A DNA stretch of 64,000 nucleotides from Patescibacteria group bacterium (lineage in GTDB: Bacteria > Patescibacteriota > Patescibacteriia > Patescibacteriales > JBAZCA01): contig JBAZCA010000005.1 of assembly GCA_041671125.1 (NCBI GenBank), forward strand, positions 85,864-149,863, given 5' to 3'. The notes under the pieces were generated by a model. That model worked only from the letters and a program-made list of their open reading frames with translations. It had not been told where the DNA came from and searched no databases. Position 1 is the stretch's first letter. Each line of letters opens with the position of its first letter. Shown piece after piece: positions 124 through 61,593 of the stretch. The position numbers and the translations under genes are program-made.

Positions 124-3100
124 ATGAGAAAATATTTTAAAGCCACAATCATAATATTATTTTTTCTTGCTGTTATTCTCGGGACAGCTCATTTTGTTTT
201 GGCTCAGTCGGATTTGGATTTGGGATTGTCAGCCGGTGAACAAATCGGCCTTTCGTCGGCCTCGCCCAAAACCGTGATCGTTAATGTTGTCCGGGTTCTG
301 CTCGGATTCTTGGCGCTAGTCGCCGTAATTATAATTATGTACGGCGGTTTTATCTGGATGACGGCCGGCGGCAACGCGGAAAAAATTGAAAAAGCGAAAA
401 AAATCCTGAGAAACGCGGCTATCGGACTCTTAATTATTCTTTCGGCGTTCGCTATTGTGAGCTTTTTAATGACCAAGCTGATACCGCCTACACCCTGCGT
501 CGGGCCTGATTGTCCGGGAAATTGCGAGCCACCGTGCGGTGATGGACTTACCTGCTGTCCCGGAGATTTTTGCGCCGAAAGCTGCGGCACTCCTCCGCCG
601 GACGGTTCATTTCTTATTAACAGAACAGTACCAGGGAACAATGACGTGAATGTTATAAGGAATGTCGTTATCAGGGCGTTTTTTAACGAGCAGATTGACA
701 ATTCCACAGATCAGACGACCCTGACGGATAATTTTATTGTAGAAGATTTGGGTACGATTGCGAAAAATGGCGAGTTTATAGCGAAAAATTATCCGCCGAA
801 AATTATTGTCATGGAAGCTCATGCCCAATCCGGAATAACCGGAAGCGTGGCGACTTCTTCGGCCTGGCAGGAAATTAATTTTCGGCCGTTAGCGGAATGC
901 GGCGACGAAAAAGATACGCCTAACTGCCTGCCGGGCAGCCGGCGGATTCAGGTAACAGTAAACGGCGCGAGCGGGATTTTTTCAGTAGGACATCAGTCGC
1001 TTTCCTGCGCCGGAACCAGTTGCCGTTTTATTTTTACGACCGGAGAGTTAATTGATACCGAGGGGCCGATGTCCGGAATTATTCCGGCCCAGATGTGTAA
1101 AGACGACGGAACCTTAAAGCCTGACGCCAATACCGTCGGCGGCTGGGGCAGGGATGATATCGCCATTGCCAAGTTGGAATTTTTTTCGGAAAAATCAGGC
1201 GGTCCGGAGAATCTCGCCCATCTTGAGCCCGGTAATTCGGAAAAATACCAGTATTTAGACTGGAAATATGATACTTCCGCGATGAACGTCGGCGACAGCT
1301 ATACTTTTAAAGTTAGAGCAGAAGATTTAGCCGCGTCGTCTTCGGTCGCCAGTTTTAGTACAACCATAAAATCCGGCCACTGTTGTAACGGCATTAAGGA
1401 CGCCGGCGAAGAAGAAGTTGATTGCGGCGGAGCCGACTGCCTCGCCTGCGAAGGCGGAGCCTGCAATAGATCAGAGCCGAATTTATGCGGTGTCGAAAAC
1501 TCTAACTGTGCCGATGAGCTATGTTCAACCAGTTATTGTCAGTGTGATACGCCAGAGGGATGCATCTGCAAAAAGCGGCCGATTATTTACGGGATATCGC
1601 CATATGGCGGATTTTGCGACGGCAATATTAATAAATTTTGCCGCCTTGACGGCGATTGCGCAGGACTAAATCCCGCAACCTGCAATAAAGACGCGCCAAA
1701 CGGAGCGCCGGAAAATTTTTTGACGATTTATGGGAAGAATTTTGGCGTGGTTAATAATCTTTTGGAGAATGTTTTGACCAATATCAATTTTGAGCAGGGA
1801 GCACTCGGAGGGGTGCCGAAAGACTGGACGAGCAGCTATCAGGGTCATTCCTGGGTCGGAATCGTGAGCGAAGCCGGTAACTATGTTTCGCCTTCAAGAA
1901 GCGTTAAACTGCACCAAGACTCCGGTCAGTCCTACCCCGGGGTTTGTAGCGAAGAATTATGTAAACATCAAGGGATTTATGATAAATTCCCTCATGCCTG
2001 CCAATGGAGGAATGAGGGTGGGACGAATAAGTGCGTTTTTCCTCATGACGCTTACTGCGGGGAAGGGGAATGCAAAATTAACGAAGGACAAGATTTGGAG
2101 TGGCCGTACACTAACCGGGTGATGTGGTTTAAGCTTGTTTATGATATTTCAAAATTGGATTTTACAGTCGGAGATAGGTATGTCTTAAGGTTTAAATATA
2201 AAGGCCATACTTCGACGAGTGTTAACGTCCAGTCCGGTTACAGTCTAGGCTGGAACAGTCAGGCATGGCTAAAAGCCGATTACAACGATCCAACCTGCGT
2301 TACCCAGGGCGGTACATACTGTTCCGACAGTCCGGGAAAATGCCAATGCTCTGAAGCGCCGGATTATTGCTGTTACGATGCGCCGGCGCAAACCAAGCCT
2401 TATTTGTCTTTTTCATTTTCCGGCATACCCCCCGGCGATTATAGTGACTGGCGCAGTTATGAATCATTTTTTACATATACGGATGAAATGGACCGATTGA
2501 AAAACCGGACGGGAAAAAAAACATTTGAGGTTGGCCTGACCGTCGGCTATAATGCTACTGATTCCTTAGACACGGATATATACGTTGATGATTTCATGTT
2601 CGCCAGGGTCGCTTCAAAAGCCGGCGTAAATTTTGTCGGAGCAAAGGGCGATCCGGCTGATGATAGAACAGGAGTCTTTCCTACGGACCTGAATCCTAAT
2701 TGTATAAGCAGCTGGATTGATAATCAGATTATAATAGCAATCCCTCAAGAGGTGGTTAGCGGTAGCATCGCGGTTACTGGAGAAAACGGCTTAGCTGACG
2801 CTACTGATGACCAATACGGGCCGGTGTTAAAAGATTTTACCGCCAATACGATTATAAGGCCTGGAATTTGCCGGCTGGTGAATGATAAATGCGCCGGTAA
2901 TCCCGCTTGTCAGGCGGATCACGGATTGATAGGAGATACGCTTACTTATTATGGCCTCAATCTGCCTCTCGGATCCAGCGCTTATTTCGGCGACTGGCAG
3001 GGAAATAATGTCCCGGGCACAAATTCTTTATTCGGCGCGGATATTAATAGGCAGGGAATATCCGGGGTAGCGAATATTTACCCGGGGCTTACAACAAGTT

Positions 3101-6100
3101 TTGTTGTTAAAGATAATATAAATAGCAATTATTTAAATTTTACCAAAGATCCGGAACCCTATTCGGGGCCGCTTATTGAATCTTTTGACCCGCAAACCGG
3201 AACTTCCACCCAATATGTTACGATCCGGGGCCGCGGTTTTGGCAACGCGCGGGGAGAGAGTCAGGTATTTTTCGGGAACGAGAGCGGTATAGAAGCCGGT
3301 TATGATTTTCCGAAAGTCTGCGCCGACAGTGTCTGGACCGATAATCAGGTAATTATAAAAGTCCCGGCAGGAATCGCCGACGGATTATATTTATTAACTA
3401 TGAAAATCGGGACGGTGGTTATTAATACTTCGGAACTAGCGATGCCAAAATTCATGGTTGACAGCTCAGAACCGCTTAAACCGAGCCTTTGCAAAATTCA
3501 GCCGGTGATGGGGCTAATTGGTCAGCCGGTGAGCTTTTGGGGCGAATACTTTGGTGCGAAAGATGCTAATAGTAAAATAAAATTTTATTTGAATAAATAC
3601 CAGCCGGGATCTTCAGGCTATTGGGGAAAGGATAATTCTACGACAAGCGGAATAATTCCGGATATGGCGACAACGACGGTTCCGGCCAGAGCCATAAGCG
3701 GGCCGGTTAAAATGATAAAAAACAAGCCGGAATTAGAAGGAAACGGATTAAATTTTAAAGTCGGGGAATGTTCCAAATCCGAAGAGTGCGGAGGCGGGGC
3801 AGTCTGTTGCCCTTCCGGTTCCCAACATCAGGGTCGTTGTATGTTCGGCGATAATGTTGAAGAAGCCTGCTATGACGTTTTTAAATCCTGCGTTTATGAA
3901 TGGGATTTTTCAACCGGAGCAAAAATCGGCGACCCTTGCGATAAGGATAAAGATAAAGCAAAATGTCAGCCGGATCAGGACGTTTGCGGTGATGAGCTGG
4001 TTTGTTATGTGGACGAAGAAAATCCGGATCTTAACTGCACCTGTCAAATGCCCTGTGATTTGAAACCTGGCGATGAGCCCGGAAATGAGGGTTGCCAGAA
4101 AGATGATGACAAGTGCCAAAGCGAACTTGGTGAAGATTATATTTGTGATCCGGAGAGCGATTGCACCTGCCAGCCGACTTATACCGAGTCATGCTCCGGC
4201 TACGATATAAACCAATGTGTCTATAATTATTGTTCCGGCCCAAAAAAGCCGGGAGAGTGCAGCGTTAATACAGAGCCGAAAGAAGGAAATAAATGCAACA
4301 GCAAATATTGCAAAGACCTTTGCGGAGGCAAAGCCTGCGAGTATAACGAAACACTGGACAAATGCGCGGAAAATACTTTAATTTGTGGATTGTCCCACGC
4401 GGAAACCCGTAATATTGGAGGCAAGGACGTTCAGCTCGATGAATATTGTGCTTTGTATAACAAAAAATACCGTTGGCATGTTAAAAATTTTGAAAACTGC
4501 AATCTACTGGGCGGTTCCTGGCGGAATGCCGGCGGAAGCGTTTGTGCCGATGTCGGTTCTGAATGTGGTGGAGTTTGCGAAGCCGGACTGAATTGCGTCG
4601 GAGAAAATGGCAAAGACAATAACGGCGACGGGGCGCTTGACGCATCGTGGATAGGAGTTTGCGGAGTTGACCGGGCGGTTTGCGGTTTGGATTATGAATG
4701 CAAGAATGGCACTTGCAAGCAGAAAATCGCCGGCATTTGCGAATGTTGCTGCCAAAAAAGCGAAAATAAATATGATTTGGACGGAATTTTTAAATATAAT
4801 CCCCAGTGTTGTGCGCCGCTAAAATGCGGAAGCGAATGCGGGGAAAGTGTCGGCAAACCGGAAAAAGTCTGTAAAAAAACTGATAGCGTACTTACAAAGA
4901 AAAAATGCGATACTGAAGCCGACTGCGACACCGGTTCCGGAGAAACCTGTGTGGAAAATTTACCTACAGCCGATTTCGGGCTTTGCTCGGGTTGCCGGGT
5001 TGACAGCGACAATAACGGCGGAATATCGGAAGAGGAGCAGGAAAAATCCGATCAGGCCTGCAACTGCGCCGGTTCAGCCGGAAAATACTGCGACGTTAAC
5101 ACTGACGCCAATTCTGACGGAAAACTGGACAACCAAGACGGAGTCTGCCGCGAATGCGGAGAGCTAAGCTATTATCCGGCTAAGTGCACCGAGCATGACG
5201 CTTCTTGTTGCGTTGACGGTCAAGAAGGTAGCGTCTGTCGGGGAATAACATCCGGCGGGAGCACGGTAAAAGAAGACAATTTAGCCTATTGCGCTTACTA
5301 TAAGTGCGGCACCTCGGAAGACCAATACCAATGCGACAGCGAAAATCCGAGCCCCGGTTTAATTAATCCGGACAGCTATCCTTACGATAAACCTAATTGC
5401 GACGGAGCTTGCGGATCTCCGCCCGGCGGATCATGTTATAATGAAAAACAGGAACTTTGCTCGCTTAATTGCTGGATGTCGGAAGCGTATAAGTGTCTTG
5501 GGTATGGCGATTATGGGGAAAACGATACGCCGGGAATTTGCTGGGATTGGAATAAAAATCCGGAAACCGAAGTGCCCAAATGCGATGCCGGAGACGGATC
5601 GTGCCTTTGTTGCTGCGACCCGGGTAAAACCGGAATTGACCCGACTGATCCCGCGACTTATGACGCCTGTCAGGCGCTGGATAATAAAAAATTAAAATGT
5701 CAGCCAGATAAAGAACCTTGCACCTCGGATAAAAGAGGTCTTTGTTGCGGCTGTGAGGCTGATGTGGACTGCGTTATTCCCAGTGAACAGCCCGATCTTG
5801 TCGGTTGCGGATTTGACGCCTGTTGCCGGGCCCGGCCGGATGTAGAAAGGGATAGCGAAATACCAAAAAATGGCCAGACTGACGCCTGCCGGAACGGGCA
5901 AATCAGCGCGGTATTCAGTGAAAGAATGGATATTCAAAGTTTCCCGAGCAATATTATCGTGGCCGGAGAATATAGCGGGAAATGTCCGGACGGAACGGTT
6001 TATGTCGCTATTAACGGCGAAGAACCGGGATTTTTTAAGCGGATAATCGCGAAAATTTCAGGGCTGGTAAAAAAAATAATCCATTTCCGGTCTAAAGAAG

Positions 6101-8043
6101 CCATGGCTTTAGCGCCCGAGCCAGGAAAAAATTATTGCGCTGTTCCAGGAAGCGTTAGCGGTTATCAGACCGCCGGCAAAAAAACCGAAATCATTTTTTC
6201 CGTTAGTAAACTTTTAGATCCGGGTCGGCAGTATTATGTGATCATAAAAGGCGATGAAAATTTTGACAGCCGCTCGGGTGTTTTAAGTTTCTGGAAAATC
6301 GGCATGAACGGCAAAGGTTATAATAACCCCGACACTCCGGCTGACGATTGGAATGAGCTGGAATCCGTAATTTTTAACGGCAAAACCTACAAGAACGCCC
6401 ATGTTTGGACTTTTAAAACCATGGATAGCAAATCGGAAAATAAAGGCGTTTGCACGGTAAAAGACGTTGCCATTGACCCTAATTCATACTTATATAATAC
6501 CAATATAGACGACCTCGCGGAAAATGATACTAACCAGAATGACCGCACTTTTGATACGGCTTATGACATTGATAAAGTTTTTCTTTCCAAAGCCCTGTCA
6601 AAAGACGGCCAGGTATTAGTTCCGGTGGAGGGTTATAGCTGGAACTGGACATGGCTGACTGATAATCCCCGGGTGGCAAATATTTCCATTGCCCCGGACC
6701 ATGTATTTTCCAACGGCGCGCCCGAAAGCGATCGTCAGTTAATCCGGGCTAACGAAAAAATAACCGACGGGGAAACTTTCGTCAAGGCAACGGTAAGTTT
6801 TAATTCGCAAAATACGGTCGGGCAAAAATCCGGCTCAGTTTCCGGCAAAGCGAATATTTGGGTTTTTATCTGCAAAAACCCCTGGCCGGCGATCAAAACA
6901 AATGGAACTTGGACGCCGTGGATTGACAGCGGAGCGGAAGAGTTTTGCAACGCTGGAAAAACCGGCGCCGGCGCTTCGTGCCAGAATACCAATTATGAAC
7001 TTTATTACTGCCGCGACTCGGGCGGGGAAGGAACCGCCGACGATTTGCCGGTGATTGACGCGGCTTCAATATTCAGGCGCGACCCGGACACAAAAATTCT
7101 CAAAGAAGTTTATTACCTAAGGGGTCAGTTGCCGGCCGGAGGGTATGACTTATTCGGTTTAACAGGCGAATCATCTGATTCCGGAAATGAGGTTGCGCTC
7201 CGTTGGAATCCACAGAGCTACGTTGACAGCTATAAAATTTATTACGGCGTGAGTCCGGCTGAGTATATTTTTAACAAAACGATTGATATAATTACTTCGG
7301 GAACGCCGGACGGTAAACAAGCGCTATGCCAAAGCGGGCATTGCGAATACGCGGTTTCCGGCCTGCAAAGCGGCCAAACTTATTATTTTACCATAACTTC
7401 CTATAATAAGGAGACCGGCGCCGAAAGCGGTTATTCAAAGGAAGTAAGTGCAAAGGCTGAGGATACTACTGGACCGGAAGCGGTTGACGATGCCAAAGCC
7501 GAGCCGTCCGATAAGCAGGTAAAACTGGAATATACACTGGCGAACGACGCAGTGAGTTCGGAAGTATTCTATAAAGCCGTGGCCGACGAGGACGGTTGTA
7601 AAGAGAATATTGTCTTCGGCGGTTCGGTAAAGAGTACGCAAAAAGACGGTAAAGGAACCGCGACTATTAAGTCTCTGACCAATGGCAACCGTTACTGTTT
7701 TGGCATAGCCTCTTATGACTCCTCAATGAACCCGAGCGCGACGACTACGGTTTCGGCCGTTCCGTTTTCAAACCTGGGCAACCTGAAAGCCGAGTCAGCC
7801 GCGGAGGGCAAAGCGCGTTTGAGCTGGGACGCGGCCGAGGGAATAGCCGGTTATGATATTTATCAGAAGAAAGACGGCAGCGCGGAATACACCGAAGCCG
7901 CCAGGGACGTTTCTTTTGATTATACTTTTTACAACCTCGACAGCCTTTTAAGTGGAGAAAAATATTATTTTAAGGTTGAACCGAAGAATATTGACGGAGT
8001 TAAAGATGTTTATTTAAACGAAGCGAGCGTTGTTATAAAATAA
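124..8043 (+). CDS. Giant (2639 aa) Cys-rich surface protein with a TrbC/VirB2-type (T4SS-pilin-like) N-terminal membrane anchor, IPT/TIG-like domains and C-terminal FN3 repeats
   Basis: A single 7.9-kb ORF. The N-terminus has a signal/TM segment followed by MYGGFIWMTAGGNAEKIEKAKKILRNAAIGLLIILSAFAIV, a two-helix pilin-like hairpin. The core is extremely Cys-rich (e.g. CCNGIKDAGEEEVDCGGADCLAC). IPT-like segments are present (GPLIESFDPQTGTSTQYVTIRGRGFG). Three FN3-like repeats sit at the C-terminus (LRWNPQSYVDSYKIYYG...YYFTITSYN; GYDIYQKK...KYYFKVEPKN). Confidence 0.85.
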   Translation: MRKYFKATIIILFFLAVILGTAHFVLAQSDLDLGLSAGEQIGLSSASPKTVIVNVVRVLLGFLALVAVIIIMYGGFIWMTAGGNAEKIEKAKKILRNAAIGLLIILSAFAIVSFLMTKLIPPTPCVGPDCPGNCEPPCGDGLTCCPGDFCAESCGTPPPDGSFLINRTVPGNNDVNVIRNVVIRAFFNEQIDNSTDQTTLTDNFIVEDLGTIAKNGEFIAKNYPPKIIVMEAHAQSGITGSVATSSAWQEINFRPLAECGDEKDTPNCLPGSRRIQVTVNGASGIFSVGHQSLSCAGTSCRFIFTTGELIDTEGPMSGIIPAQMCKDDGTLKPDANTVGGWGRDDIAIAKLEFFSEKSGGPENLAHLEPGNSEKYQYLDWKYDTSAMNVGDSYTFKVRAEDLAASSSVASFSTTIKSGHCCNGIKDAGEEEVDCGGADCLACEGGACNRSEPNLCGVENSNCADELCSTSYCQCDTPEGCICKKRPIIYGISPYGGFCDGNINKFCRLDGDCAGLNPATCNKDAPNGAPENFLTIYGKNFGVVNNLLENVLTNINFEQGALGGVPKDWTSSYQGHSWVGIVSEAGNYVSPSRSVKLHQDSGQSYPGVCSEELCKHQGIYDKFPHACQWRNEGGTNKCVFPHDAYCGEGECKINEGQDLEWPYTNRVMWFKLVYDISKLDFTVGDRYVLRFKYKGHTSTSVNVQSGYSLGWNSQAWLKADYNDPTCVTQGGTYCSDSPGKCQCSEAPDYCCYDAPAQTKPYLSFSFSGIPPGDYSDWRSYESFFTYTDEMDRLKNRTGKKTFEVGLTVGYNATDSLDTDIYVDDFMFARVASKAGVNFVGAKGDPADDRTGVFPTDLNPNCISSWIDNQIIIAIPQEVVSGSIAVTGENGLADATDDQYGPVLKDFTANTIIRPGICRLVNDKCAGNPACQADHGLIGDTLTYYGLNLPLGSSAYFGDWQGNNVPGTNSLFGADINRQGISGVANIYPGLTTSFVVKDNINSNYLNFTKDPEPYSGPLIESFDPQTGTSTQYVTIRGRGFGNARGESQVFFGNESGIEAGYDFPKVCADSVWTDNQVIIKVPAGIADGLYLLTMKIGTVVINTSELAMPKFMVDSSEPLKPSLCKIQPVMGLIGQPVSFWGEYFGAKDANSKIKFYLNKYQPGSSGYWGKDNSTTSGIIPDMATTTVPARAISGPVKMIKNKPELEGNGLNFKVGECSKSEECGGGAVCCPSGSQHQGRCMFGDNVEEACYDVFKSCVYEWDFSTGAKIGDPCDKDKDKAKCQPDQDVCGDELVCYVDEENPDLNCTCQMPCDLKPGDEPGNEGCQKDDDKCQSELGEDYICDPESDCTCQPTYTESCSGYDINQCVYNYCSGPKKPGECSVNTEPKEGNKCNSKYCKDLCGGKACEYNETLDKCAENTLICGLSHAETRNIGGKDVQLDEYCALYNKKYRWHVKNFENCNLLGGSWRNAGGSVCADVGSECGGVCEAGLNCVGENGKDNNGDGALDASWIGVCGVDRAVCGLDYECKNGTCKQKIAGICECCCQKSENKYDLDGIFKYNPQCCAPLKCGSECGESVGKPEKVCKKTDSVLTKKKCDTEADCDTGSGETCVENLPTADFGLCSGCRVDSDNNGGISEEEQEKSDQACNCAGSAGKYCDVNTDANSDGKLDNQDGVCRECGELSYYPAKCTEHDASCCVDGQEGSVCRGITSGGSTVKEDNLAYCAYYKCGTSEDQYQCDSENPSPGLINPDSYPYDKPNCDGACGSPPGGSCYNEKQELCSLNCWMSEAYKCLGYGDYGENDTPGICWDWNKNPETEVPKCDAGDGSCLCCCDPGKTGIDPTDPATYDACQALDNKKLKCQPDKEPCTSDKRGLCCGCEADVDCVIPSEQPDLVGCGFDACCRARPDVERDSEIPKNGQTDACRNGQISAVFSERMDIQSFPSNIIVAGEYSGKCPDGTVYVAINGEEPGFFKRIIAKISGLVKKIIHFRSKEAMALAPEPGKNYCAVPGSVSGYQTAGKKTEIIFSVSKLLDPGRQYYVIIKGDENFDSRSGVLSFWKIGMNGKGYNNPDTPADDWNELESVIFNGKTYKNAHVWTFKTMDSKSENKGVCTVKDVAIDPNSYLYNTNIDDLAENDTNQNDRTFDTAYDIDKVFLSKALSKDGQVLVPVEGYSWNWTWLTDNPRVANISIAPDHVFSNGAPESDRQLIRANEKITDGETFVKATVSFNSQNTVGQKSGSVSGKANIWVFICKNPWPAIKTNGTWTPWIDSGAEEFCNAGKTGAGASCQNTNYELYYCRDSGGEGTADDLPVIDAASIFRRDPDTKILKEVYYLRGQLPAGGYDLFGLTGESSDSGNEVALRWNPQSYVDSYKIYYGVSPAEYIFNKTIDIITSGTPDGKQALCQSGHCEYAVSGLQSGQTYYFTITSYNKETGAESGYSKEVSAKAEDTTGPEAVDDAKAEPSDKQVKLEYTLANDAVSSEVFYKAVADEDGCKENIVFGGSVKSTQKDGKGTATIKSLTNGNRYCFGIASYDSSMNPSATTTVSAVPFSNLGNLKAESAAEGKARLSWDAAEGIAGYDIYQKKDGSAEYTEAARDVSFDYTFYNLDSLLSGEKYYFKVEPKNIDGVKDVYLNEASVVIK

Positions 8044-30283: not shown

Positions 30284-30310
30284 TACGGATAGCAAAAAAT
30301 TATAAACACA

Positions 30311-30366
30311 ACACCCCGTTAACGCGGGGTTTTTGTTTATTCCGGCGAATTATGGTAAAATAATAA
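30311..30366 (+). promoter_or_regulatory. Terminator plus promoter module (copy 1 of a 56-nt exact direct repeat)
   Basis: Hairpin CCCCG-ttaacg-CGGGG (30314-30329) followed by a T-run. Then -35 TTGTTT (30333-30338), a 17-nt spacer, and an extended -10 TGgTAAAAT (30353-30361). It is identical to 43146-43201. Confidence 0.65.
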
Positions 30367-45360: not shown

Positions 45361-45393
45361 AATTACAAATTAAGAATTACGAATTAAAAATTA
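45361..45393. repeat. Left inverted repeat flanking the four-helix-bundle gene
   Basis: aattacaaattaagaattacgaattaaaaatt differs at 2 of 32 positions from the reverse complement of 45751-45784. Confidence 0.85.
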
Positions 45394-45759
45394 ATGAAAG
45401 ATAATGTAATTAAACATAAAAGTTACAAGTTTGCGTTAAGAATAATTGGATTGTATAAATATCTTGTTTCAAATAAAAAAGAATTTGTTATCGCAAAACA
45501 AGTATTAAGAAGCGGAACTTCTATAGGAGCAAACGTTGAAGAAGCGATTGGCGGTCAATCGGATAAGGACTTTATTTCCAAGATGTCTATCGCTTATAAA
45601 GAAGCAAGAGAAACTAATTATTGGATTAATTTGCTGGAAGATTCCGGATATATAGATGTTAAAGCGGCGGAATCAATTAAGAAAGATTGCATTGAGTTAT
45701 GCAGAATAATTGCCAGAATAAAAATGACAATGAAAAGTAAAAATAAAAACAATTCTTAA
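45394..45759 (+). CDS. Four-helix-bundle protein (family formerly called 23S rRNA intervening-sequence protein)
   Basis: YKFALRIIGLYKYL...QVLRSGTSIGANVEEAIGGQSDKDFISKMSIAYKEARETNYWINLL matches the family pattern (..RS.TSIGANI.EA..A.S..DF..K..IA.KEA.ET.YWL.LL). Confidence 0.8.
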   Translation: MKDNVIKHKSYKFALRIIGLYKYLVSNKKEFVIAKQVLRSGTSIGANVEEAIGGQSDKDFISKMSIAYKEARETNYWINLLEDSGYIDVKAAESIKKDCIELCRIIARIKMTMKSKNKNNS

Positions 45760-45784
45760 TTCGTAATTTTTAATTTGTAATTTA
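45751..45784. repeat. Right inverted repeat flanking the four-helix-bundle gene
   Basis: The sequence is aattcttaattcgtaatttttaatttgtaattta. It includes the last 3 codons of the gene and fills the gap up to the next ATG. Confidence 0.85.
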
Positions 45785-47851
45785 ATGAGTAGTAACGACA
45801 TAACATTATTCGGCATCACTACGTTCCGCAATAAGAACCGCGCTTTTGGCATCAAACTCGATGACCGGCGGCGGCATATGTATGTTATTGGAAAGACCGG
45901 AATGGGAAAGTCTACCCTTTTGGAAAATATGATTGTCGGTGATATCCGGGCCGGCCGGGGGGTAGCGGTGGTTGATCCGCACGGCGACCTCGCGGAAAAG
46001 GTGATTGACTTTATTCCGAGCGACCGGATTAACGATGTAATATATTTTAATCCGTCCGACATGGAATTTCCAATCGCTTTTAACATCCTGGAACGGGTGG
46101 AGCCGCATCTGCGGCATCTCGTCGCTTCCGGATTGATCGGAGTTTTTCAGAAACTCTGGGCCGACTCCTGGGGGCCGCGGCTGGAATATATTTTAAGGAA
46201 TACTATCCTCGCGGTTTTAGATTATCCGGGCGCGACTCTTTTAGCCGTCACCCGGATGCTTTCCGACAAAGATTTCAGGAAAAAGGTGGTGGATAAAACA
46301 TTAGATCCGGTAGTGAAAACTTTTTGGACCAAAGAATTCGCCGGTTACGCCGACAAGTTCGCTTCAGAAGCCGTTTCCCCGATCCAAAACAAAGTCGGCC
46401 AATTTTTATCCAGTTCGCTCATAAGAAATATTATCGGTCAGGTTAAATCTTCCATAGACGTCCGAAAAATTATGGACGAAGGGAAAATTTTAATCATGAA
46501 CCTTTCTAAAGGCCGCATCGGCGAAGATAATTCGGCTTTGCTCGGGAGCATGATGATCACGAAAATCCAGCTGGCGGCCATGAGCCGGGTTGACGTGCCC
46601 GAAGCCGAGCGCCACGATTTTTATCTTTACGTTGATGAATTCCAGAATTTCGCCACTGACAGTTTTGCCAATATTTTATCCGAAGCCCGGAAATACCACC
46701 TTAACTTAATTATGGGCCACCAATACGTTGAACAGCTCGGAGATGTCGTAAAAGCCGCGGTTTTCGGTAATGTCGGAACTTTAGTAGTCTTCCGCGTCGG
46801 CGCCATTGACGCCGAAGAGTTAGTAAAAGAATTTACCCCGACTTTTACCGAAGAAGATTTAGTTAACCTGCCAAAATACGAAATGTATTTAAAGCTGATG
46901 ATTGACGGAGTGTCTTCGGATCCTTTTTCCGCCCGGGGTCTTCCGCCGATCGGGGAGGAAATAAAAACCGACAGCGCCGAAAAAGTTATTAAAGTTTCCC
47001 GGGAGCGCTACGCCAGGAAAAAAGACGAAGTTGAGGAAAAAATAATGAAATGGCACGCCATTGACGAGGTGATAAATAAGGCGCCGGATAAAACCGGCGC
47101 GAGGAACGCTTCGGCCGGGAAAAACGCGCCTTCCGGAAAAAACGCGGGGCAGGGAAAAGAGGGCGGAAAAAAAGATAAAAAAACATTTACCGCCCTAGCC
47201 TCAAAGGCTTCAGAAACTCGTGGTAAAATTTACAGCAAGCCGGATGATAAGCTCCGATCCGTTCCTGTTGCGCTTCGCCAGCCGGCGGATATGGAAAATA
47301 AATCGGACAATGAGCCGTTTATTGTTTCGTCCCGTGAAGACATGGAAATCAAGAAAGCTTTGGAGGGTAAACCCGGGGATAGCGAGACGTATAAATATGA
47401 AGCTGTTTGTTCAAGATGCGCCGGCGCGGCTCGGATCTCCTTTCCGCCGGACGGCATCCGACCGATTTTTTGCAAGAACTGCCTGACGGAAATTAAAAAG
47501 GAAAAAGTCAGCGAAATGGAAGAACGGAAAAAAAATAAGCGCGAAGAGCTGGAAAAGCTCGCCAGAAAAGAACTGGAGAAAGAGAAAGCCCGGTCTGCCC
47601 GGCGGACCGGCGGCGACAGTCCTTCGCGGGAAAAAAATGTTTTGGACGGAAATAAAACCGAAGCCGAAAAAAAGAGCTTATTCACCAATAAAGAATTTGA
47701 AAAAGACTGGAAAGAAATTTCCTTAAGCGAGCTTGCCAGCTTTGTTCCGGTTAAGTTCGGAGACCTGAAAAAAGAAAAAGTTAACGATGAAAAAGGCGGC
47801 AACGGAGCGAAAAATATGGTTCCCGGAAAACCGGTTAAGATCGGATTATAA
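45785..47851 (+). CDS. VirD4/TraD-like (FtsK/HerA superfamily) P-loop ATPase without a TM domain, with a C-terminal zinc ribbon
   Basis: Walker A GKTGMGKST and Walker B FYLYVDEFQNF. The C-terminal part is K/E-rich and carries CSRCAGAARISFPPDGIRPIFCKNC. Confidence 0.75.
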   Translation: MSSNDITLFGITTFRNKNRAFGIKLDDRRRHMYVIGKTGMGKSTLLENMIVGDIRAGRGVAVVDPHGDLAEKVIDFIPSDRINDVIYFNPSDMEFPIAFNILERVEPHLRHLVASGLIGVFQKLWADSWGPRLEYILRNTILAVLDYPGATLLAVTRMLSDKDFRKKVVDKTLDPVVKTFWTKEFAGYADKFASEAVSPIQNKVGQFLSSSLIRNIIGQVKSSIDVRKIMDEGKILIMNLSKGRIGEDNSALLGSMMITKIQLAAMSRVDVPEAERHDFYLYVDEFQNFATDSFANILSEARKYHLNLIMGHQYVEQLGDVVKAAVFGNVGTLVVFRVGAIDAEELVKEFTPTFTEEDLVNLPKYEMYLKLMIDGVSSDPFSARGLPPIGEEIKTDSAEKVIKVSRERYARKKDEVEEKIMKWHAIDEVINKAPDKTGARNASAGKNAPSGKNAGQGKEGGKKDKKTFTALASKASETRGKIYSKPDDKLRSVPVALRQPADMENKSDNEPFIVSSREDMEIKKALEGKPGDSETYKYEAVCSRCAGAARISFPPDGIRPIFCKNCLTEIKKEKVSEMEERKKNKREELEKLARKELEKEKARSARRTGGDSPSREKNVLDGNKTEAEKKSLFTNKEFEKDWKEISLSELASFVPVKFGDLKKEKVNDEKGGNGAKNMVPGKPVKIGL

Positions 47852-47868
47852 TTAGACCCCCTCCCTAA

Positions 47869-47901
47869 CCCTCCCCCTATCGCTATCGCTCAGGGGGAGG
47901 G
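47869..47901. repeat. GC-rich palindromic element, copy A (CCCTCCCCCT...AGGGGGAGGG)
   Basis: The sequence is ccctccccctatcgctatcgctcagggggaggg, with a 10-bp perfect stem. Confidence 0.85.
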
Positions 47902-52519: not shown

Positions 52520-52636
52520 AATTTTTAATTTTGTAATTTTTAATTTTTAAAGCTCGGTACTAAACAATAAACCGGCTATTTAAAAATAAGGCTCATACAT
52601 TAAAAATTCAAAAATTCAAAATTAAAAATTCTATCT

Positions 52637-52966: not shown

Positions 52967-53039
52967 CCAATACATTATTTGCGAATGAGGAAATCGTTTT
53001 TTTGAATTCGTAATTCTGCATTCGTAATTCGTAAATCTT

Positions 53040-56796: not shown

Positions 56797-58101
56797 ATGC
56801 CAGAAATAAAAATCATTATCGCCAGGGAAATTCTTGATTCCCGGGGCAACCCGACGGTGGAAGTGAATATAACCCTGGATAACGGGATAGCGGTTCGAGC
56901 CAGCGCGGCTTCGGCCGGTTCTTTTAGCGCACATGAAGCAGTGGAATTAAGGGATGGTGATAAAAAAAGATTTAACGGGATGGGGGTGTTAAAAGCCGTG
57001 GAAAATGTCAATAAAATTATCAGTTCAAAACTGGCCGGCATGCAGGCGGAAGATCAGAAAAAAATTGACGCCATGATGATTGAACTGGACGGGACCGAGA
57101 ATAAGAAAAAACTGGGAGCCAACGCGATACTGCCCGTATCATTGGCATGCGCCAGGGCGGTTGCTGTTAGCCGCGGACAAGAATTGTATGAATATATGGC
57201 TGAAAATTACGAATTAAAAATTAAAAATTACAAATTACCTGTTCCGTGCTTTAATATGTTTAACGGAGGGGAACACGGCGACACCAATCTGGATTTTAAG
57301 GAATACATGGTAATACCGCTTGCCCACAAAAACTCCCTCCCCTTGAGCGAAGCGATAGGGGGAGGGTCGGGGAGGGGGTTTTCCGATATGGTTCGGATGG
57401 GTGCGGAAATTTATCATGAGCTTGGTTGGGTTTTAAAAGAGGCGGGATATGACACGGACACCGGAACCGAAGGCGGTTACGCGCCGGGTATGCATTCTTC
57501 AATCCAGGCCATGGAATTAATTATGGCCGCCGGAGTCCGCGCCGGATATAAGCCGGGAAAAGATTTTGGCTTAGGGATTGATATCGGATCCTCTGACCTG
57601 TATAATAAGGAAACCGGAAAATATGTTTTTAAGCTGGATCAGTCCCATTTTACGAGCGCCAGCCTGGTTGGATTATATTATGAGTGGTTCCGAAAATACC
57701 CGGTCGTTTATCTTGAAGACGGGCTCTCGGCGGATGATTTTTCCGGTTGGCGGGAATTAACCCGTTCGCTCGGGCCGGAAATCGCCTTGGCGGGCGACAA
57801 ACTTTTTGCCACCCGCGTAAAACGGGTAAGGGAGGCGTTAAAAGAAAAAGCCGCCAATACGGTTGTAATAAAACCGGGTCAGGCCGGTACCCTGACCGAA
57901 ACTATGGAATGTGCCTTGCTCGCGAAAAAACATGGCTATAAAATAGCCGTATCGGCGCGCGGAGGCGAAACAAACGATGATTTTATTTCCGACCTCGCCG
58001 TTGCCCTCGGCGCGGAATATATTAAAGCCGGATCATTGTCAAGAGGGGAGAGGGTGGCGAAGTATAACAGGCTGATGGAAATAGAGAAAGACTTAAAGTA
58101 A
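56797..58101 (+). CDS. eno: Enolase carrying two repeat-derived segments
   Basis: ILDSRGNPTVEV, FNGGEHG, IKPGQAGTLTE and SARGGETNDDFISDLAV. See the findings for the embedded palindrome. Confidence 0.9.
   Translation: MPEIKIIIAREILDSRGNPTVEVNITLDNGIAVRASAASAGSFSAHEAVELRDGDKKRFNGMGVLKAVENVNKIISSKLAGMQAEDQKKIDAMMIELDGTENKKKLGANAILPVSLACARAVAVSRGQELYEYMAENYELKIKNYKLPVPCFNMFNGGEHGDTNLDFKEYMVIPLAHKNSLPLSEAIGGGSGRGFSDMVRMGAEIYHELGWVLKEAGYDTDTGTEGGYAPGMHSSIQAMELIMAAGVRAGYKPGKDFGLGIDIGSSDLYNKETGKYVFKLDQSHFTSASLVGLYYEWFRKYPVVYLEDGLSADDFSGWRELTRSLGPEIALAGDKLFATRVKRVREALKEKAANTVVIKPGQAGTLTETMECALLAKKHGYKIAVSARGGETNDDFISDLAVALGAEYIKAGSLSRGERVAKYNRLMEIEKDLK
57335..57366. repeat. GC-rich palindromic element inside the eno reading frame (reverse orientation relative to copies A and B)
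   Basis: The sequence is ccctccccttgagcgaagcgatagggggaggg. Its reverse complement differs from copy A by one indel and one substitution. It is translated as part of SLPLSEAIGGGSGRG. Confidence 0.85.
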
Positions 58102-58254
58102 TTTAAAATTTTCATTTTTCAATTTTTAAACAATTTTCAATGACTCAATTTTCAATTAAGAAATTGAAATATTTTAATCATTGTTTAGAAATTGATTGCC
58201 TGTCCGGCAGGCAGGAAAATTAAAAATTGAAAATTTTTGTTTAAGTAATTTTGT

Positions 58255-59838
58255 ATGGCAAATAAAGAAAATTTGAATAAAAATAATTTACCCATGATAC
58301 TTGTTATCCTTGACGGCTGGGGCATCGCGCCCCCTTCCAAGGGCAACGCCGTTACCCTTTCCCGGACGCCGGTTATGGACGCCATAACAAAAAAATACCC
58401 TTACACCCTCCTTAAAGCCAGCGGCCGGTCAGTCGGTCTTCCCTTAAAACAGCCCGGCAATTCGGAAGCCGGACACATGAACCTCGGCGCCGGCAGGGTC
58501 GTTGATCAGGACGCAGTGATAATTACAAAAAGCATAAATGACGGCACATTTTTTAAAAACCCGGCTTTTCTCGCCGCAATAAAAAATGTTCGGGAAAAAA
58601 AATCCAACCTCCATATTATGGGCATGCTTTCCAACGGAGAGAGCGCCCACAGCGACCCGGATCATCTTCTCGCGCTTCTTACCCTGGCTCGCCTGCAAAA
58701 AATTCATAATGTCTATCTGCATTTGTTTACCGACGGCAGGGACTCGCCGAGATACGACGGCTTAAAACTGGTGCAGGATATTAAAAAAGGCTTTAAGAAC
58801 GGCGAGGCGATAGCGACTATAATGGGCCGTTATTACGCTATGGATCGGAGAAAAAAATGGTTCAATACGGAAAAAGCTTTTAACGCCCTGGTTTTAGGAA
58901 AAGGCCGGAAATCCGAATCAGTCGAAGCGGCCATCACCGAAAGCTATAACCGGGGGGATTCGGATGAGTTTATTGAACCTTACGTTATCATCCGCAAAGG
59001 CAAGCCCTTACCGAGGATAAGTAACAACGACAGCGTTATTTTCTTTAACCTCCGATCGGACCGGGCGCGCCAGCTCGCTAAGACTTTCGTCCAGAAAAAT
59101 TTTTGTGAGAAAAACGCCGCCTGTTTTATTCCGGCGAAAAGGCTGAAAAATATCGTTTTTATCGCCATGACTGATTTTGGTCCGGATTTAGGAAATATTA
59201 TTTCGGCTTTTCCGAGCGCCGACATCAAAGACACTCTTCCTATGGTATTAAAGGATGTGAGTCAGGCCTATATCGCCGAGACGGAAAAGTATGCCCATGT
59301 CACTTATTTTTTTAACGGCGGTTATGCGGGCCGGGTCAACGGGGAAGAGCAGTTTATGATTCCGTCGCCTGACGTTAAATCTTATGATGAGACTCCGCTT
59401 ATGAGCTCCGCGGCGCTTGCTGATGCCGTGATTTTAAACCTGAAAGAAAAAAAATACGATTTTACCGTCCTGAATCTGGCGGCTCCGGACATGATCGGAC
59501 ATACCGGCAACCTGAAAGCCGGAATTGAGTGCGTTGCCGGCGTGGATAAATGCCTCGGAAAAATCATTGACGCTTATAAGAAAGCCGGCGGCACGATTCT
59601 CGTTACCGCTGATCACGGCAATATTGAGGAAATGATAAACCTCGCGACCGGAGAGATTAATACCGAACATAGTTCCAACCCCGTCCCTTTTGTGCTGGTT
59701 AATGACAGCCTGAAAAAGATAGCGCTCCGGTCCGGCCGGGTGCTTTCCGACGTCGCCCCGACCGCACTTGCGCTTTTAGGGATAAAAAAACCCCCTTTAA
59801 TGAAAGGGGAGAGCCTTATAAAATCACATAACACATAA
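58255..59838 (+). CDS. gpmI: 2,3-bisphosphoglycerate-independent phosphoglycerate mutase, copy 1
   Basis: ILDGWG, GNSEAGHMNLGAGR (catalytic Ser), ETEKYAHVTYFFNGG, PDMIGHTGN and TADHGN. Confidence 0.9.
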   Translation: MANKENLNKNNLPMILVILDGWGIAPPSKGNAVTLSRTPVMDAITKKYPYTLLKASGRSVGLPLKQPGNSEAGHMNLGAGRVVDQDAVIITKSINDGTFFKNPAFLAAIKNVREKKSNLHIMGMLSNGESAHSDPDHLLALLTLARLQKIHNVYLHLFTDGRDSPRYDGLKLVQDIKKGFKNGEAIATIMGRYYAMDRRKKWFNTEKAFNALVLGKGRKSESVEAAITESYNRGDSDEFIEPYVIIRKGKPLPRISNNDSVIFFNLRSDRARQLAKTFVQKNFCEKNAACFIPAKRLKNIVFIAMTDFGPDLGNIISAFPSADIKDTLPMVLKDVSQAYIAETEKYAHVTYFFNGGYAGRVNGEEQFMIPSPDVKSYDETPLMSSAALADAVILNLKEKKYDFTVLNLAAPDMIGHTGNLKAGIECVAGVDKCLGKIIDAYKKAGGTILVTADHGNIEEMINLATGEINTEHSSNPVPFVLVNDSLKKIALRSGRVLSDVAPTALALLGIKKPPLMKGESLIKSHNT

Positions 59839-59940: not shown

Positions 59941-61545
59941 ATGTTAAATAACGACAATAAAAAAATAATCAGGCCTAAACCGGTTGTTCTTTGCGTTCTG
60001 GACGGCTGGGGAATAAATCAACCTTACAGCGGCAATGCAATTACCCAGGCGAAACTTCCTACTTATAATGAACTGGTCGCCCACTATCCATCCCTAACTC
60101 TTATGGCTTCCGGCGAGGCAGTCGGCCTTCCCTGGGGAGAAGCTGGAAATTCGGAAGTCGGCCATCTTAACCTCGGGCTAGGAAAAGTAGTTTATCAGGA
60201 TTTGCCGCGGATAAACAAAGCTATCAGTGATAACAGTTTTTTTGAAAATAAGGCTTTGCTCGGCGCTGTTGAACACGCGCGAAAAAATGGATCCGCCCTT
60301 CACCTCATAGGTCTTCTTTCCAACGGCGGAGTCCACGCTTCAATCGACCACGTTACGGCGCTTCTCGCTCTGGCCCGGGAAAAGAAGTTTGACCGGGTTT
60401 TTATCCACGCCTTTCTTGATGGCCGGGATACGGTTTATAACGGCGGAATCGGGTTTATAGAAGATTTGGAGCGCGCCATCAATGAATACGGCCGGGGAAA
60501 AATAGCAAGCCTTTCCGGCCGTTTTTACGCCATGGATCGGGACAATCACTGGGACCGGGTTGAAAAAGCTTACGCGACCATGGTTTTTGGACGGGGAAAA
60601 ATCGCGGCAGATCCGGTAGAGGCTGTTTCCGAAAGTTATGATAATAAAATATATGACGAAGAATTTTTGCCGGTCGCGATTGTTGACGATAAAGGTGTTC
60701 CATTAGGGATGATAAGTGACAATGACGCGGTGATATTTTTTAATTTCCGACCTGACCGGGCGCGCGAACTTACCAAAGCGCTTATTCTTCCCTCTTTTGA
60801 CAAATTTCAGCGCGGGTCGGCGGTAAAAAATTTATTTTTCACCTGTTTTACTGAATACGAAAAAGGTCTGCCCGTTGAAATCGCTTTTTCCGAAGAACCG
60901 GTTAAAAACACTCTGGGAGAAATCATATCCAAGGCTGGACTGAAGCAGCTCCGAATCGCTGAAACGGAGAAGTACGCCCATGTCACTTATTTTTTTAACG
61001 GCGGCAAAGAAGAAAAAAACGATGGCGAAGATCATATCATCGTCCCTTCGCCGCGGATTGACTCATATGATTTAAAGCCGGAGATGTCGGCTAATGAGGT
61101 GACAAAAAAAATTGAAGAAGCCATTCGCAAGAACTTATATGATTTTATTATGGTTAATTACGCCAATGCCGACATGGTTGGCCACACAGGGAACCTGAAA
61201 GCGGCGGTAAAAGCTGTTGAGACGATTGACAAATGCCTTTCCCGCCTTTGTCGGGTCACGCTCCAGTCAGGCGGCGTAGTAGTTATTACGGCTGATCACG
61301 GCAACGCCGAATCCATGTTCAACATGCAGACTGGAACAATTGAAAAAGAGCACAGCGTTAATCCGGTGCCCTTGATACTGGTCGGCAAAGAATTTGAAGG
61401 CAAAGCTCTTTATGGCTCCAATGCTATTGGTTCAGACCTTACTCTTTCCCGACCGGCCGGAATTTTGTCCGATGTCGCTCCGACCATCCTGAAAATTATG
61501 GGGCTCGCAAAGCCCAAAGAAATGACGGGGAGATCGCTAATATAA
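59941..61545 (+). CDS. gpmI: 2,3-bisphosphoglycerate-independent phosphoglycerate mutase, copy 2
   Basis: VLDGWG, GNSEVGHLNLGLGK, ETEKYAHVTYFFNGG, ADMVGHTGN and TADHGN. Confidence 0.9.
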   Translation: MLNNDNKKIIRPKPVVLCVLDGWGINQPYSGNAITQAKLPTYNELVAHYPSLTLMASGEAVGLPWGEAGNSEVGHLNLGLGKVVYQDLPRINKAISDNSFFENKALLGAVEHARKNGSALHLIGLLSNGGVHASIDHVTALLALAREKKFDRVFIHAFLDGRDTVYNGGIGFIEDLERAINEYGRGKIASLSGRFYAMDRDNHWDRVEKAYATMVFGRGKIAADPVEAVSESYDNKIYDEEFLPVAIVDDKGVPLGMISDNDAVIFFNFRPDRARELTKALILPSFDKFQRGSAVKNLFFTCFTEYEKGLPVEIAFSEEPVKNTLGEIISKAGLKQLRIAETEKYAHVTYFFNGGKEEKNDGEDHIIVPSPRIDSYDLKPEMSANEVTKKIEEAIRKNLYDFIMVNYANADMVGHTGNLKAAVKAVETIDKCLSRLCRVTLQSGGVVVITADHGNAESMFNMQTGTIEKEHSVNPVPLILVGKEFEGKALYGSNAIGSDLTLSRPAGILSDVAPTILKIMGLAKPKEMTGRSLI

Positions 61546-61593
61546 TTTTTTAATTTTTTAAAATTTTGTTTAAAAATTATAAAATTAAAAATT

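Follow-up and report, generated by a model that had tools for sequence, protein, structure and literature searches.

Anatomy of a hairpin repeat in eno and in intergenic spacers

The gene for enolase (eno) in a 64-kb stretch of Patescibacteria DNA (contig JBAZCA010000005.1; the whole stretch is called the window below) contains a GC-rich hairpin repeat which is also found, in the opposite orientation, in two intergenic spacers. The gene belongs to a pgk–eno–gpmI–gpmI cluster, with pgk upstream and two gpmI genes downstream, and its product is listed by NCBI under the name ‘Patescibacteria group bacterium’. The window forms part of a contig of 198 kb from a metagenome. A sequence-only reading of the window had described the hairpin and proposed that a mobile palindromic element has colonised the open reading frame (ORF). 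We followed up this proposal in the window and about 4 kb of extra flank, the stretch to which the copy counts refer, as well as in related loci (designated by L numbers) and related enolases (P numbers). The coordinates of the features are collected in Table 1.

The 16-mer CCCTCCCCCTATCGCT occurs at exactly three sites of the window, 47869(+), 63247(+) and 57351–57366(−), with an expectation of 0.00 as computed from 100 dinucleotide-preserving shuffles. The octamer CCCTCCCC is found 11 times compared with 2.2 expected occurrences, and all 11 are inside these three loci. When aligned by blastn-short, the eno segment is 91.3% identical to positions 47856–47901 over 46 nt (E = 2.5e-9) and 89.4% identical to positions 63235–63281 over 47 nt (E = 1.6e-7), while the family profile scores the eno copy with an E-value of 5e-13 (nhmmer). 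A 47-column profile built from the copies did not reveal any additional match in the window. The two spacer hairpins (47869–47901 and 63247–63279) and the reverse complement within eno (57335–57366) had been reported by the sequence-only reading and were found at these positions; the one indel and the one substitution which separate the eno copy from that at 47869 were also confirmed.

In every copy, a 12-nt C-rich leader with the consensus CCCCCTCCC(T/C)N(A/G) is located directly 5′ of the hairpin. The hairpin has a stem of 9–10 bp, formed by the arms CCCTCCCCCT and AGGGGGAGGG, and a loop of 13–15 nt which starts with ATCGCT. Because the leader precedes every copy, the unit is about 45 nt long; the hairpin stands as originally described, but the size of 32–33 nt assigned to it has to be corrected. 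The sequence TCGGGGAGGGGG, which trails the hairpin in eno and had been regarded as a piece of the second hairpin at 63296–63321, is instead the reverse complement of the leader.

Intergenic copy 1 begins 6 nt past the stop codon of a gene for a TrwB/DUF87-type ATPase (45785–47851) and ends 49 nt ahead of a PHP-domain gene (47950). Its RNA fold has an energy of −25 kcal/mol (z = −3.5), that of copy 2 an energy of −24.3 kcal/mol. The spacer downstream of mltG contains a small cluster (63202–63350) consisting of a truncated copy, copy 2 (which follows 16 nt downstream of the truncated one) and an inverted second hairpin. By its architecture, the latter is probably a reverse-oriented relative of the repeat family. 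Fold z-scores are weak for the copies with C- or G-tracts (−1.5 to −1.6; −1.6 for the window eno copy), because shuffled C-runs and G-runs still pair, and the hairpin was judged from the sequence.

No repeat copy was called by a scan of the window for rho-independent terminator and promoter consensus sequences. The loops of 13–15 nt are outside the range of 3–8 nt for intrinsic terminators, and a T-run is present only after the copy at 63235, where it follows 8 nt later. A search of the whole window against Rfam 15 gave no match at gathering thresholds, and permissive scans returned only matches far below threshold. The 15-mer CCCTCCCCCTATCGC, searched for across genome contigs, had at least 118 chance matches in unrelated phyla, and none of the matches listed carried the full element.

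The sense strand of the insert also carries four G-tracts separated by loops of 1–2 nt (57358–57378(+), GGGGGAGGGTCGGGGAGGGGG), which read as a canonical G-quadruplex-type motif and would compete with the hairpin. Further, the insert has GGAGG strings resembling a Shine–Dalgarno sequence, the nearest being 12 nt upstream of an in-frame ATG at 57388.

The insert is in-frame and coincides with a loop of the protein

Within eno, the repeat corresponds to the 15 codons 180–194 (TCC CTC CCC TTG AGC GAA GCG ATA GGG GGA GGG TCG GGG AGG GGG), which are read as SLPLSEAIGGGSGRG. Its GC content is 71%, compared with 47% in the rest of the gene, and the 45-nt unit is free of stop codons in five of its six frames. 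The junctions are AAAAACT on one side and TTTTCC on the other, and the peptide is flanked by PLAHKN and FSDMVR. The predicted tryptic peptide from the insert is NSLPLSEAIGGGSGR.

Alignment by HMMER places the 15 residues opposite a gap of exactly 15 residues in the enolase of Bacillus subtilis (4a3r) and in another solved enolase. The gap is located between the strand ending in EFMIMP and the helix with F(R/H)EA(L/V)RMGA, which is where the insert had been placed relative to canonical enolases. In the window enolase, the loop lies after the KEYMVIP strand with the catalytic Glu, which we take to be E169, and before the helix FSDMVRMGAEIYH. An AlphaFold2 model based on 116 homologs has a mean predicted local distance difference test (pLDDT) score of 87.9 and a predicted template modelling (pTM) score of 0.90. 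The sole segment with a pLDDT below 50 comprises residues 178–192, between the strand 169–174 and the helix 195–215. The enolase barrel has the topology ββαα(βα)6, and the strand bearing the catalytic Glu runs antiparallel to the others. From this topology, the insert loop should be at the barrel end opposite the active site, and a position away from the active site would explain why the insert is tolerated.

Filled and empty sites in syntenic relatives

The comparison at the DNA level covered four syntenic loci, with eno genes at least 79% identical within the clade. The eno gene of the window is 79–80% identical to those of L125 and L129. In L129 (80% identity), the loop site is empty (...CTGGACAGGAAAGTTAAAAGTTTTTCC...). 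In L125, it is filled with CCTCACCCCCAACCCTTCTCCATTCGCTGCCGCTCATGGAGAAAGG despite 90% identity of its eno gene to that of L129, so that presence/absence polymorphism of an insert does exist among relatives. The L125 insert shares with the window unit the leader-plus-hairpin design and the loop motif TCGCT...CGCTCA; it differs from the window copy by its forward orientation, by its frame (ASPP, ASPPTLLHSLPLMEKG) and by a position about 15 nt further upstream, and matches the window-family profile only weakly (E = 0.025). The gene of L127, which is 84–86% identical to those of L125 and L129, contains a different hairpin family (CTCACCCCCGACCCCTTTCCCGC...GCGGGCGAGGGGAG, read as LTPDPFP...RARGA), again about 15 nt upstream. 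The clade thus shows one empty and three distinct filled states.

The elements of L127 and L131 are 90% identical over 51 nt, but the eno genes carrying them are only 63% identical. Since this element is conserved beyond its gene and the states are mixed within the clade, simple vertical descent with drift is inadequate. As judged from the sequences, the inserts of the window, L125 and L127 are independent events. The sequence-only reading had held that its proposal would fail if close relatives carry an equally long but unrelated segment at this position. Taken literally, such segments are present in L125 and L127; but they are hairpin repeats themselves, in other orientations, frames and insertion points, which indicates recurrent colonisation and turnover rather than an ordinary ancestral loop.

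A second group, L136, L134 and L135, has three different loop states in eno genes which are 85–88% identical. The loop is empty in L136 (...CCCCCT-AACAAAAATAAG-TTTTGC). In L134, two tandem GC hairpins, CCCCGCCTCTCGCGAGAGGCGGGG and CCCCCTTTATCAAGGGGG, take the place of the A-rich stretch of L136, and L135 has an AT-rich 21-nt unit (ACGAATAGCCACGAATTTAAA) which is tandemly duplicated.

When filled and empty sites are compared, a few bases are replaced and none are duplicated. The insert junctions vary by several nucleotides, so that the hot spot is the A/T-rich tract coding for the loop and not one phosphodiester bond. Among the inserts at this position (site 1) which could be viewed as DNA, seven of nine form strong hairpins (−22 to −56 kcal/mol; empty sites, −1 to −5 kcal/mol), while the AT-rich inserts of L132 (−6.9 kcal/mol) and L135 (−11.8 kcal/mol) barely fold. 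All nine are a multiple of three nucleotides long and stop-free in the frame used, with stop codons in 11 of 18 alternative sense frames, in a sample which is biased as the protein database takes only intact ORFs.

The loop across the lineage

To survey the loop, we used the 120 best enolase homologs, which are 60–100% identical to the window enolase and whose named sources are mostly Patescibacteria, Parcubacteria or Falkowbacteria. The loop has the canonical length (up to 6 residues) in 56 proteins, 7–9 residues in seven and 10–35 residues in 57. At least 25 of the long loops begin rich in Pro and end rich in Gly/Arg, the pattern which a hairpin with a C-arm and a G-arm should give when translated in-frame, and 15 are Asn-rich, of the AT-repeat type. 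Among 150 proteins chosen to represent diverse enolase clusters (39–62% identical), the loop comprises 4–5 residues in 137 cases and nine or more in only five.

Filled and empty states are intermixed on a neighbour-joining tree (a quick tree with the loops masked). Unrelated loops occur in proteins which are 94–97% identical elsewhere (P0022/P0026, P0008/P0019/P0041, P0011/P0013, P0002/P0003 and P0012/P0014). Read from these alignments, the enolase loop is a lineage-wide landing site, which various hairpin families and AT-rich heptads have entered and where they have been replaced and lost.

A small clade of enolases (that of the window and P0002–P0004) deviates at motifs which are near-invariant in the remaining 112 homologs (window residues 36–47, 333–336, 359–362 and 386–392). 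The flap loop S(V)PSGASTG.HEA is changed to SAASAGSFSAHEA, SHRSGET to SARGGET or SQRGGET, GDDLF to GDKLF or GDNLF, and KPNQ to KPGQ. Catalysis may be relaxed or altered in these proteins. The two gpmI genes 3′ of eno (58255–59838 and 59941–61545) are tandem paralogues for 2,3-bisphosphoglycerate-independent phosphoglycerate mutase (iPGM), and this pair is also kept in L125, L127, L130 and L131.

Intergenic twins and inserts in other genes

Outside the window, a copy of the window family is present in intergenic DNA of the L123 contig. It is 93.6% identical to the eno copy, leader included, and the RidA protein encoded at L123 clusters at 90% identity or more with a protein which NCBI names as Patescibacteria group bacterium. 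The eno hairpin of L133, with a stem of 21 bp, likewise has an intergenic twin (L133:63–117). This twin is flanked by T5/A5 beside a tRNA-like sequence and looks like a bidirectional terminator. In-frame hairpins were also found in four genes other than eno (Table 1). That in the glycosyltransferase gene of L133 has an identical copy in a spacer 840 nt away, and the forward-plus-reverse pair in the RarA/MgsA gene of L132 folds with −59 kcal/mol.

Heptad arrays and a second variable site in eno

Where the N-terminal domain joins the barrel, 35 residues upstream of the insert loop, eno contains an array of AAATTAC heptads (site 2). It matches intergenic arrays of the window at 45368–45394, 45751–45783 and 52520–52550. 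Site 2 is occupied by other arrays in relatives: AATTTCM in five copies (L132), AAAATTC in five copies (L136), an AGCTACA type (L133) and an AAGCTAT type (L134 and L135). The heptad unit differs even among eno genes which are 85–87% identical. Often, a central GC hairpin is found between repeated peptides, e.g. SIFNL...SIFNL or KFQI...KFQI. A hairpin located within the heptad arrays just downstream of eno (CCTGCCTG..CAGGCAGG) recurs in-frame at site 2 of L125 and L129, with 96% identity over 25 nt between L125 and window positions 58197–58221. The length of site 2 varies across all bacteria.

Heptad arrays fill spacers of the window and often reach as far as the start codon. Further AT-rich arrays of period 7 (AATTNNN type) are at 52602–52631, 53005–53034, 58107–58157, 58216–58235 and 61570–61593. 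A gene for a ‘23S rRNA-intervening sequence protein’ of 121 aa (45394–45759; PF05635, E = 7e-28) has the appearance of a cassette, being bracketed by 32-nt inverted heptad arrays (45361–45392 and 45751–45782) which are 94% complementary. A gene of the same type, with heptad arrays on both sides, is present at L123 (2141–2503).

Two other repeats of the window were noticed. A 59-nt direct repeat (30308–30366 and 43143–43201, 98% identical and 12.8 kb apart) follows two different genes; it consists of the hairpin CACCCCGTTAACGCGGGGT with a T-run, then TATGGTAAAAT, and looks like a terminator-plus-promoter module. The coding sequence of mltG/YceG contains a perfect 14-nt tandem repeat (AGTCAGAAGTCCCG, 2.9 copies, 62555–62594), which coincides with an extra segment specific for the window when compared with the L125 and L130 orthologs.

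Table 1. Features of the window and of related loci.
Feature	Locus	Position	Strand	Description
eno, enolase (434 aa)	window	56797–58101	+	ORF list; Pfam Enolase_N/Enolase_C; synteny; PDB enolase matches, E = 1e-111
Intergenic copy 1	window	47857–47901	+	leader CCCCCTCCCTAA (47857–47868), hairpin (47869–47901)
eno copy	window	57334–57378	−	hairpin (57335–57366), leader complement TCGGGGAGGGGG (57367–57378)
Truncated copy	window	63202–63218	+	leader and first 5 stem nt (CCCCCTCCCCAACCCTC); sequence reading; CCCTCCCC match at 63204
Intergenic copy 2	window	63235–63279	+	leader CCCCCTCCCCAG (63235–63246), hairpin (63247–63279); downstream of mltG/YceG (62130–63176)
Related second hairpin	window	63296–63350	−	ACCCTCCCCG-CAAAGT-CGGGGAGGGT (63296–63321) and G-rich tail ending GGGGTGGGGCAGGG; 10-bp stem; fold −28.4 kcal/mol
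Heptad array (eno site 2)	window	57204–57238	+	five AAATTAC units coding for ENYELKIKNYKL; TRF period 7, 5.0 copies
Intergenic hairpin	window	58197–58213	+	TGCCTG-TCCGG-CAGGCA; within heptad arrays just downstream of eno
In-frame hairpin pair	L132, RarA/MgsA	3095–3195		forward plus reverse
In-frame hairpin	L133, glycosyltransferase	2410–2440 and 3250–3280		NNPPTPFIKGAS; identical copy in spacer
In-frame GC hairpin	L127, TrwB-type ATPase	about 450–472		low-complexity tail
In-frame GC hairpin	L125, phosphoglycerate kinase	7841–7870

Interpretation of the insert and alternative explanations

We consider it likely that a dispersed hairpin repeat of intergenic spacers has been copied in-frame into a tolerant loop of eno, with its translation giving a disordered loop at the protein surface. 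According to this proposal, a short, non-autonomous, GC-rich hairpin repeat, with its usual home in the intergenic spacers of low-GC Patescibacteria genomes, would have entered eno in reverse orientation at the A/T-rich tract encoding a short loop. Two codons would thereby have been exchanged for 15. The gene would stay open because the unit consists of 45 nt without a stop codon in the frame used, and ribosomes would read through the repeat to give a disordered surface loop rich in Pro, Ser and Gly. Colonisation, overwriting and clearing of the loop would take place repeatedly. By analogy with known repeats, copying may occur by transposition which depends on the hairpin or on single-stranded DNA, of the kind seen with repetitive extragenic palindromic (REP) sequences and REP-associated tyrosine transposases (RAYT), or by recombination between repeats or a switch of template from one repeat to another, which has been suggested for the GC clusters of yeast mitochondria. 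The insert itself would be neutral ‘selfish’ DNA without an adaptive role. That a palindromic repeat has colonised the ORF in-frame, the central point of the sequence-only reading, is borne out by the intergenic copies and by the empty and filled sites of L129 and L125.

Several observations weigh against this explanation. The copies are few, with three of full length and a single truncated one. Apart from the hairpin, the repeat lacks terminal inverted repeats, there is no target-site duplication (the flanks of the four copies do not share a direct repeat), and no RAYT/IS200-type (Y1_Tnp) or transposase gene was detected among ten small ORFs of the window by Pfam. The case for mobility is therefore based on the comparative presence/absence patterns. 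Translation of the insert is inferred. In seven family members, covariation did not exceed the shuffle and slide controls, which is explained by arms that are close to homopolymers and by an alignment that had the L125 copy out of register. The orthologs of T2SSE, DUF5656, iPGM2, the glycosyltransferase and the PHP protein at the compared loci do not contain such inserts, which marks enolase site 1 as unusually receptive. Finally, random insertion plus tolerance does not obviously explain why a single loop should contain inserts in roughly half the lineage.

A stronger proposal, which we regard as speculative and rather unlikely, is that the loop after KEYMVIP and the heptad array of site 2 are targeted landing pads for intergenic repeats of Patescibacteria. 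Several hairpin families and 7-nt arrays may then turn over at both sites far faster than the gene diverges. If so, either insertion would be directed by structure or sequence through an unrecognised mechanism, or the inserts would have been exapted. In the former case, a hairpin transposase acting on single-stranded DNA could be at work, or templates could be switched at heptad or A-run/T-run tracts, and high transcription of the gene might favour this; in the latter, the hairpins could be intragenic regulatory structures of the glycolytic operon.

The hairpin might instead have been selected at this position of eno as an RNA or DNA structure, being functional and not parasitic. It could serve as a signal for processing, stability or attenuation of the pgk–eno–gpmI transcript, as a translational pause between folding units, or as a switch between hairpin and G-quadruplex, for which the sense strand offers the four G-tracts. 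That structured inserts of unrelated sequence share one location in 57 of 120 relatives, as against five of 150 diverse enolases, and that neighbouring genes are free of them would fit such a role, as would the elements of L127 and L131 with their conservation far above that of the gene. The diverged L125 copy, when set in register, keeps its stem by two double changes from C-G to T-A, and the single stem substitution of the eno copy turns one stem pair of the sense RNA into G·U. We nevertheless judge selection for a structure to be improbable. The site is empty in about half of the lineage (L129, L136 and 56 of 120 homologs), some AT-rich inserts such as those of L132 and L135 barely fold, and the inserts copy intergenic repeats in either orientation. 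Nor is there an Rfam match or a covariation count above the controls, and the fold z-score of the window eno copy is weak.

It is very improbable that the insert is left untranslated, either by ribosome bypass as in the ‘byp’ elements of Magnusiomyces mitochondria or by removal from the mRNA. An origin of the byp elements from mitochondrial GC clusters, close analogues of the repeat, has been suggested (PMC4464245) and would fit this idea. Against it, the nine site-1 inserts are all in-frame and stop-free (with the sample bias towards intact ORFs), the insert lacks matching take-off and landing codons (AAC ... TTT), and the Rfam scans did not recognise any splicing-type structure.

We attach still less credence to an ordinary hypervariable loop, in which local slippage or a de novo palindrome would have generated the insert and its likeness to spacers would be compositional. 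The location in an A/T-rich tract, the L135 insert (a local 21-nt tandem duplication) and the variable length of site 2 in all bacteria agree with this view. It does not account for matches of 89–94% over 46–47 nt, which include the non-palindromic leader and loop and of which 0 are expected, nor for the intergenic twins of in-gene hairpins found also in L133.

An assembly chimera or sequencing artefact can practically be dismissed: GC-rich hairpins are prone to mis-assembly, but three samples, each assembled independently, yielded the same 434-aa protein and the same DNA over the insert (contigs of ERZ27249449, SRR6484324 and SRR18595301), the reading frame is intact, and inserts recur in dozens of independent assemblies. 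An intein, an intron, a CRISPR repeat and a tRNA-like element were considered and rejected as no supporting feature was found.

Significance

A search of the full-text literature on Patescibacteria or the Candidate Phyla Radiation in combination with REP, the REP doublets known as REPINs, in-frame palindromes or enolase insertion returned nothing relevant. The phenomenon thus appears to be undescribed for this phylum, as the sequence-only reading had supposed. New features are the very small unit, the many families and the tie to 7-nt arrays, but chiefly the fact that a single loop of a core enzyme has been used repeatedly across a large lineage. ‘Selfish DNA inside protein-coding genes’, a theme which is classically that of Rickettsia and organelles, would be extended to the uncultured, genome-reduced Candidate Phyla Radiation. 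The loop may serve as a natural experiment in which insertion rate, target preference and protein tolerance can be measured from metagenomes alone. Inserts of this type would inflate apparent divergence and produce Pro/Gly-rich ‘low-complexity’ segments in housekeeping proteins. Pairs of filled and empty sites could be an entry point to the mobiliser in genomes where hardly any genes of mobile elements can be recognised.

Comparison with known systems

The coding palindromes of Nematomorpha are long perfect inverted repeats with both arms encoding conserved protein (PMC6649704); unlike the repeat described here, they were not copied from intergenic repeats. Membership in the miniature inverted-repeat transposable elements was rejected, as there is no inverted repeat other than the hairpin and a target-site duplication is absent. 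The byp elements resemble the inserts in being short and structured and in residing within protein genes of a compact genome (PMC4464245). They are, however, not read in-frame, whereas the inserts of enolase are in-frame and stop-free and the codons flanking the window insert, AAC and TTT, differ.

The GC clusters of yeast mitochondria are palindromic, 30–80 bp long and divided into several families, and occupy polymorphic positions in an AT-rich genome, often as tandem arrays. Their presence in VAR1/rps3 and in rRNA genes is optional and alters the size of the product, and their movement is linked to recombination (PMC4464245). The Patescibacteria repeats resemble them in that the genome is AT-rich, GC hairpins come in several families, tandem arrays occur and a protein gene may or may not carry a copy. 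The yeast clusters, in contrast, are organellar, fall into the classes M1–M4, G and V, and have as target a hypervariable ribosomal protein gene instead of a glycolytic enzyme. The likeness is taken as an analogy and not as a sign of an evolutionary relationship.

REP sequences and REPINs are GC-rich imperfect palindromes of about 35 nt, thought to be mobilised by RAYT (IS200/IS605-like Y1) transposases (PMC3184786). As in these, a conserved short motif precedes a GC-rich stem (here of 9–10 bp), and units occur singly, in inverted pairs and in clusters (window 63202–63350; L132:3095–3195), with several families per genome group and a preference for intergenic positions, commonly just downstream of genes. 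The leader is, however, a 12-nt C-tract motif and not the GTAG of classical REPs, and the ten small ORFs of the window that were scanned do not include a RAYT gene. REPs, with tens to hundreds of copies per genome, are extragenic by definition and in-frame copies are exceptional, whereas the eno copy, one of three of full length here, lies within a gene.

Rickettsia palindromic elements (RPEs; Ogata et al., 2000) are about 105–150 bp long and encode a conserved peptide in each family (reviewed in PMC10969869 and PMC3184786); their sequence families are numbered RPE-1 to RPE-10. The parallel drawn by the sequence-only reading holds as an analogy. Like RPEs, the repeat is a dispersed palindrome which is located both between genes and in-frame within protein genes, at places tolerated by the fold; the eno copy, being in-frame, stop-free and compatible with the fold, has the placement by which RPEs are recognised. 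A known transposase is lacking in both cases, and the host genome is small and reduced. Membership, on the other hand, is not indicated, since the unit of hairpin plus leader comprises only about 45 nt and the host lineage is Patescibacteria and not Rickettsia; the two are set apart here by size and host rather than by sequence comparison, and a relationship in sequence would not be expected. Repeated targeting of one enzyme loop by different families is, to our knowledge, not a described property of RPEs, whereas in the Patescibacteria one loop of enolase appears to have been struck again and again by different families.

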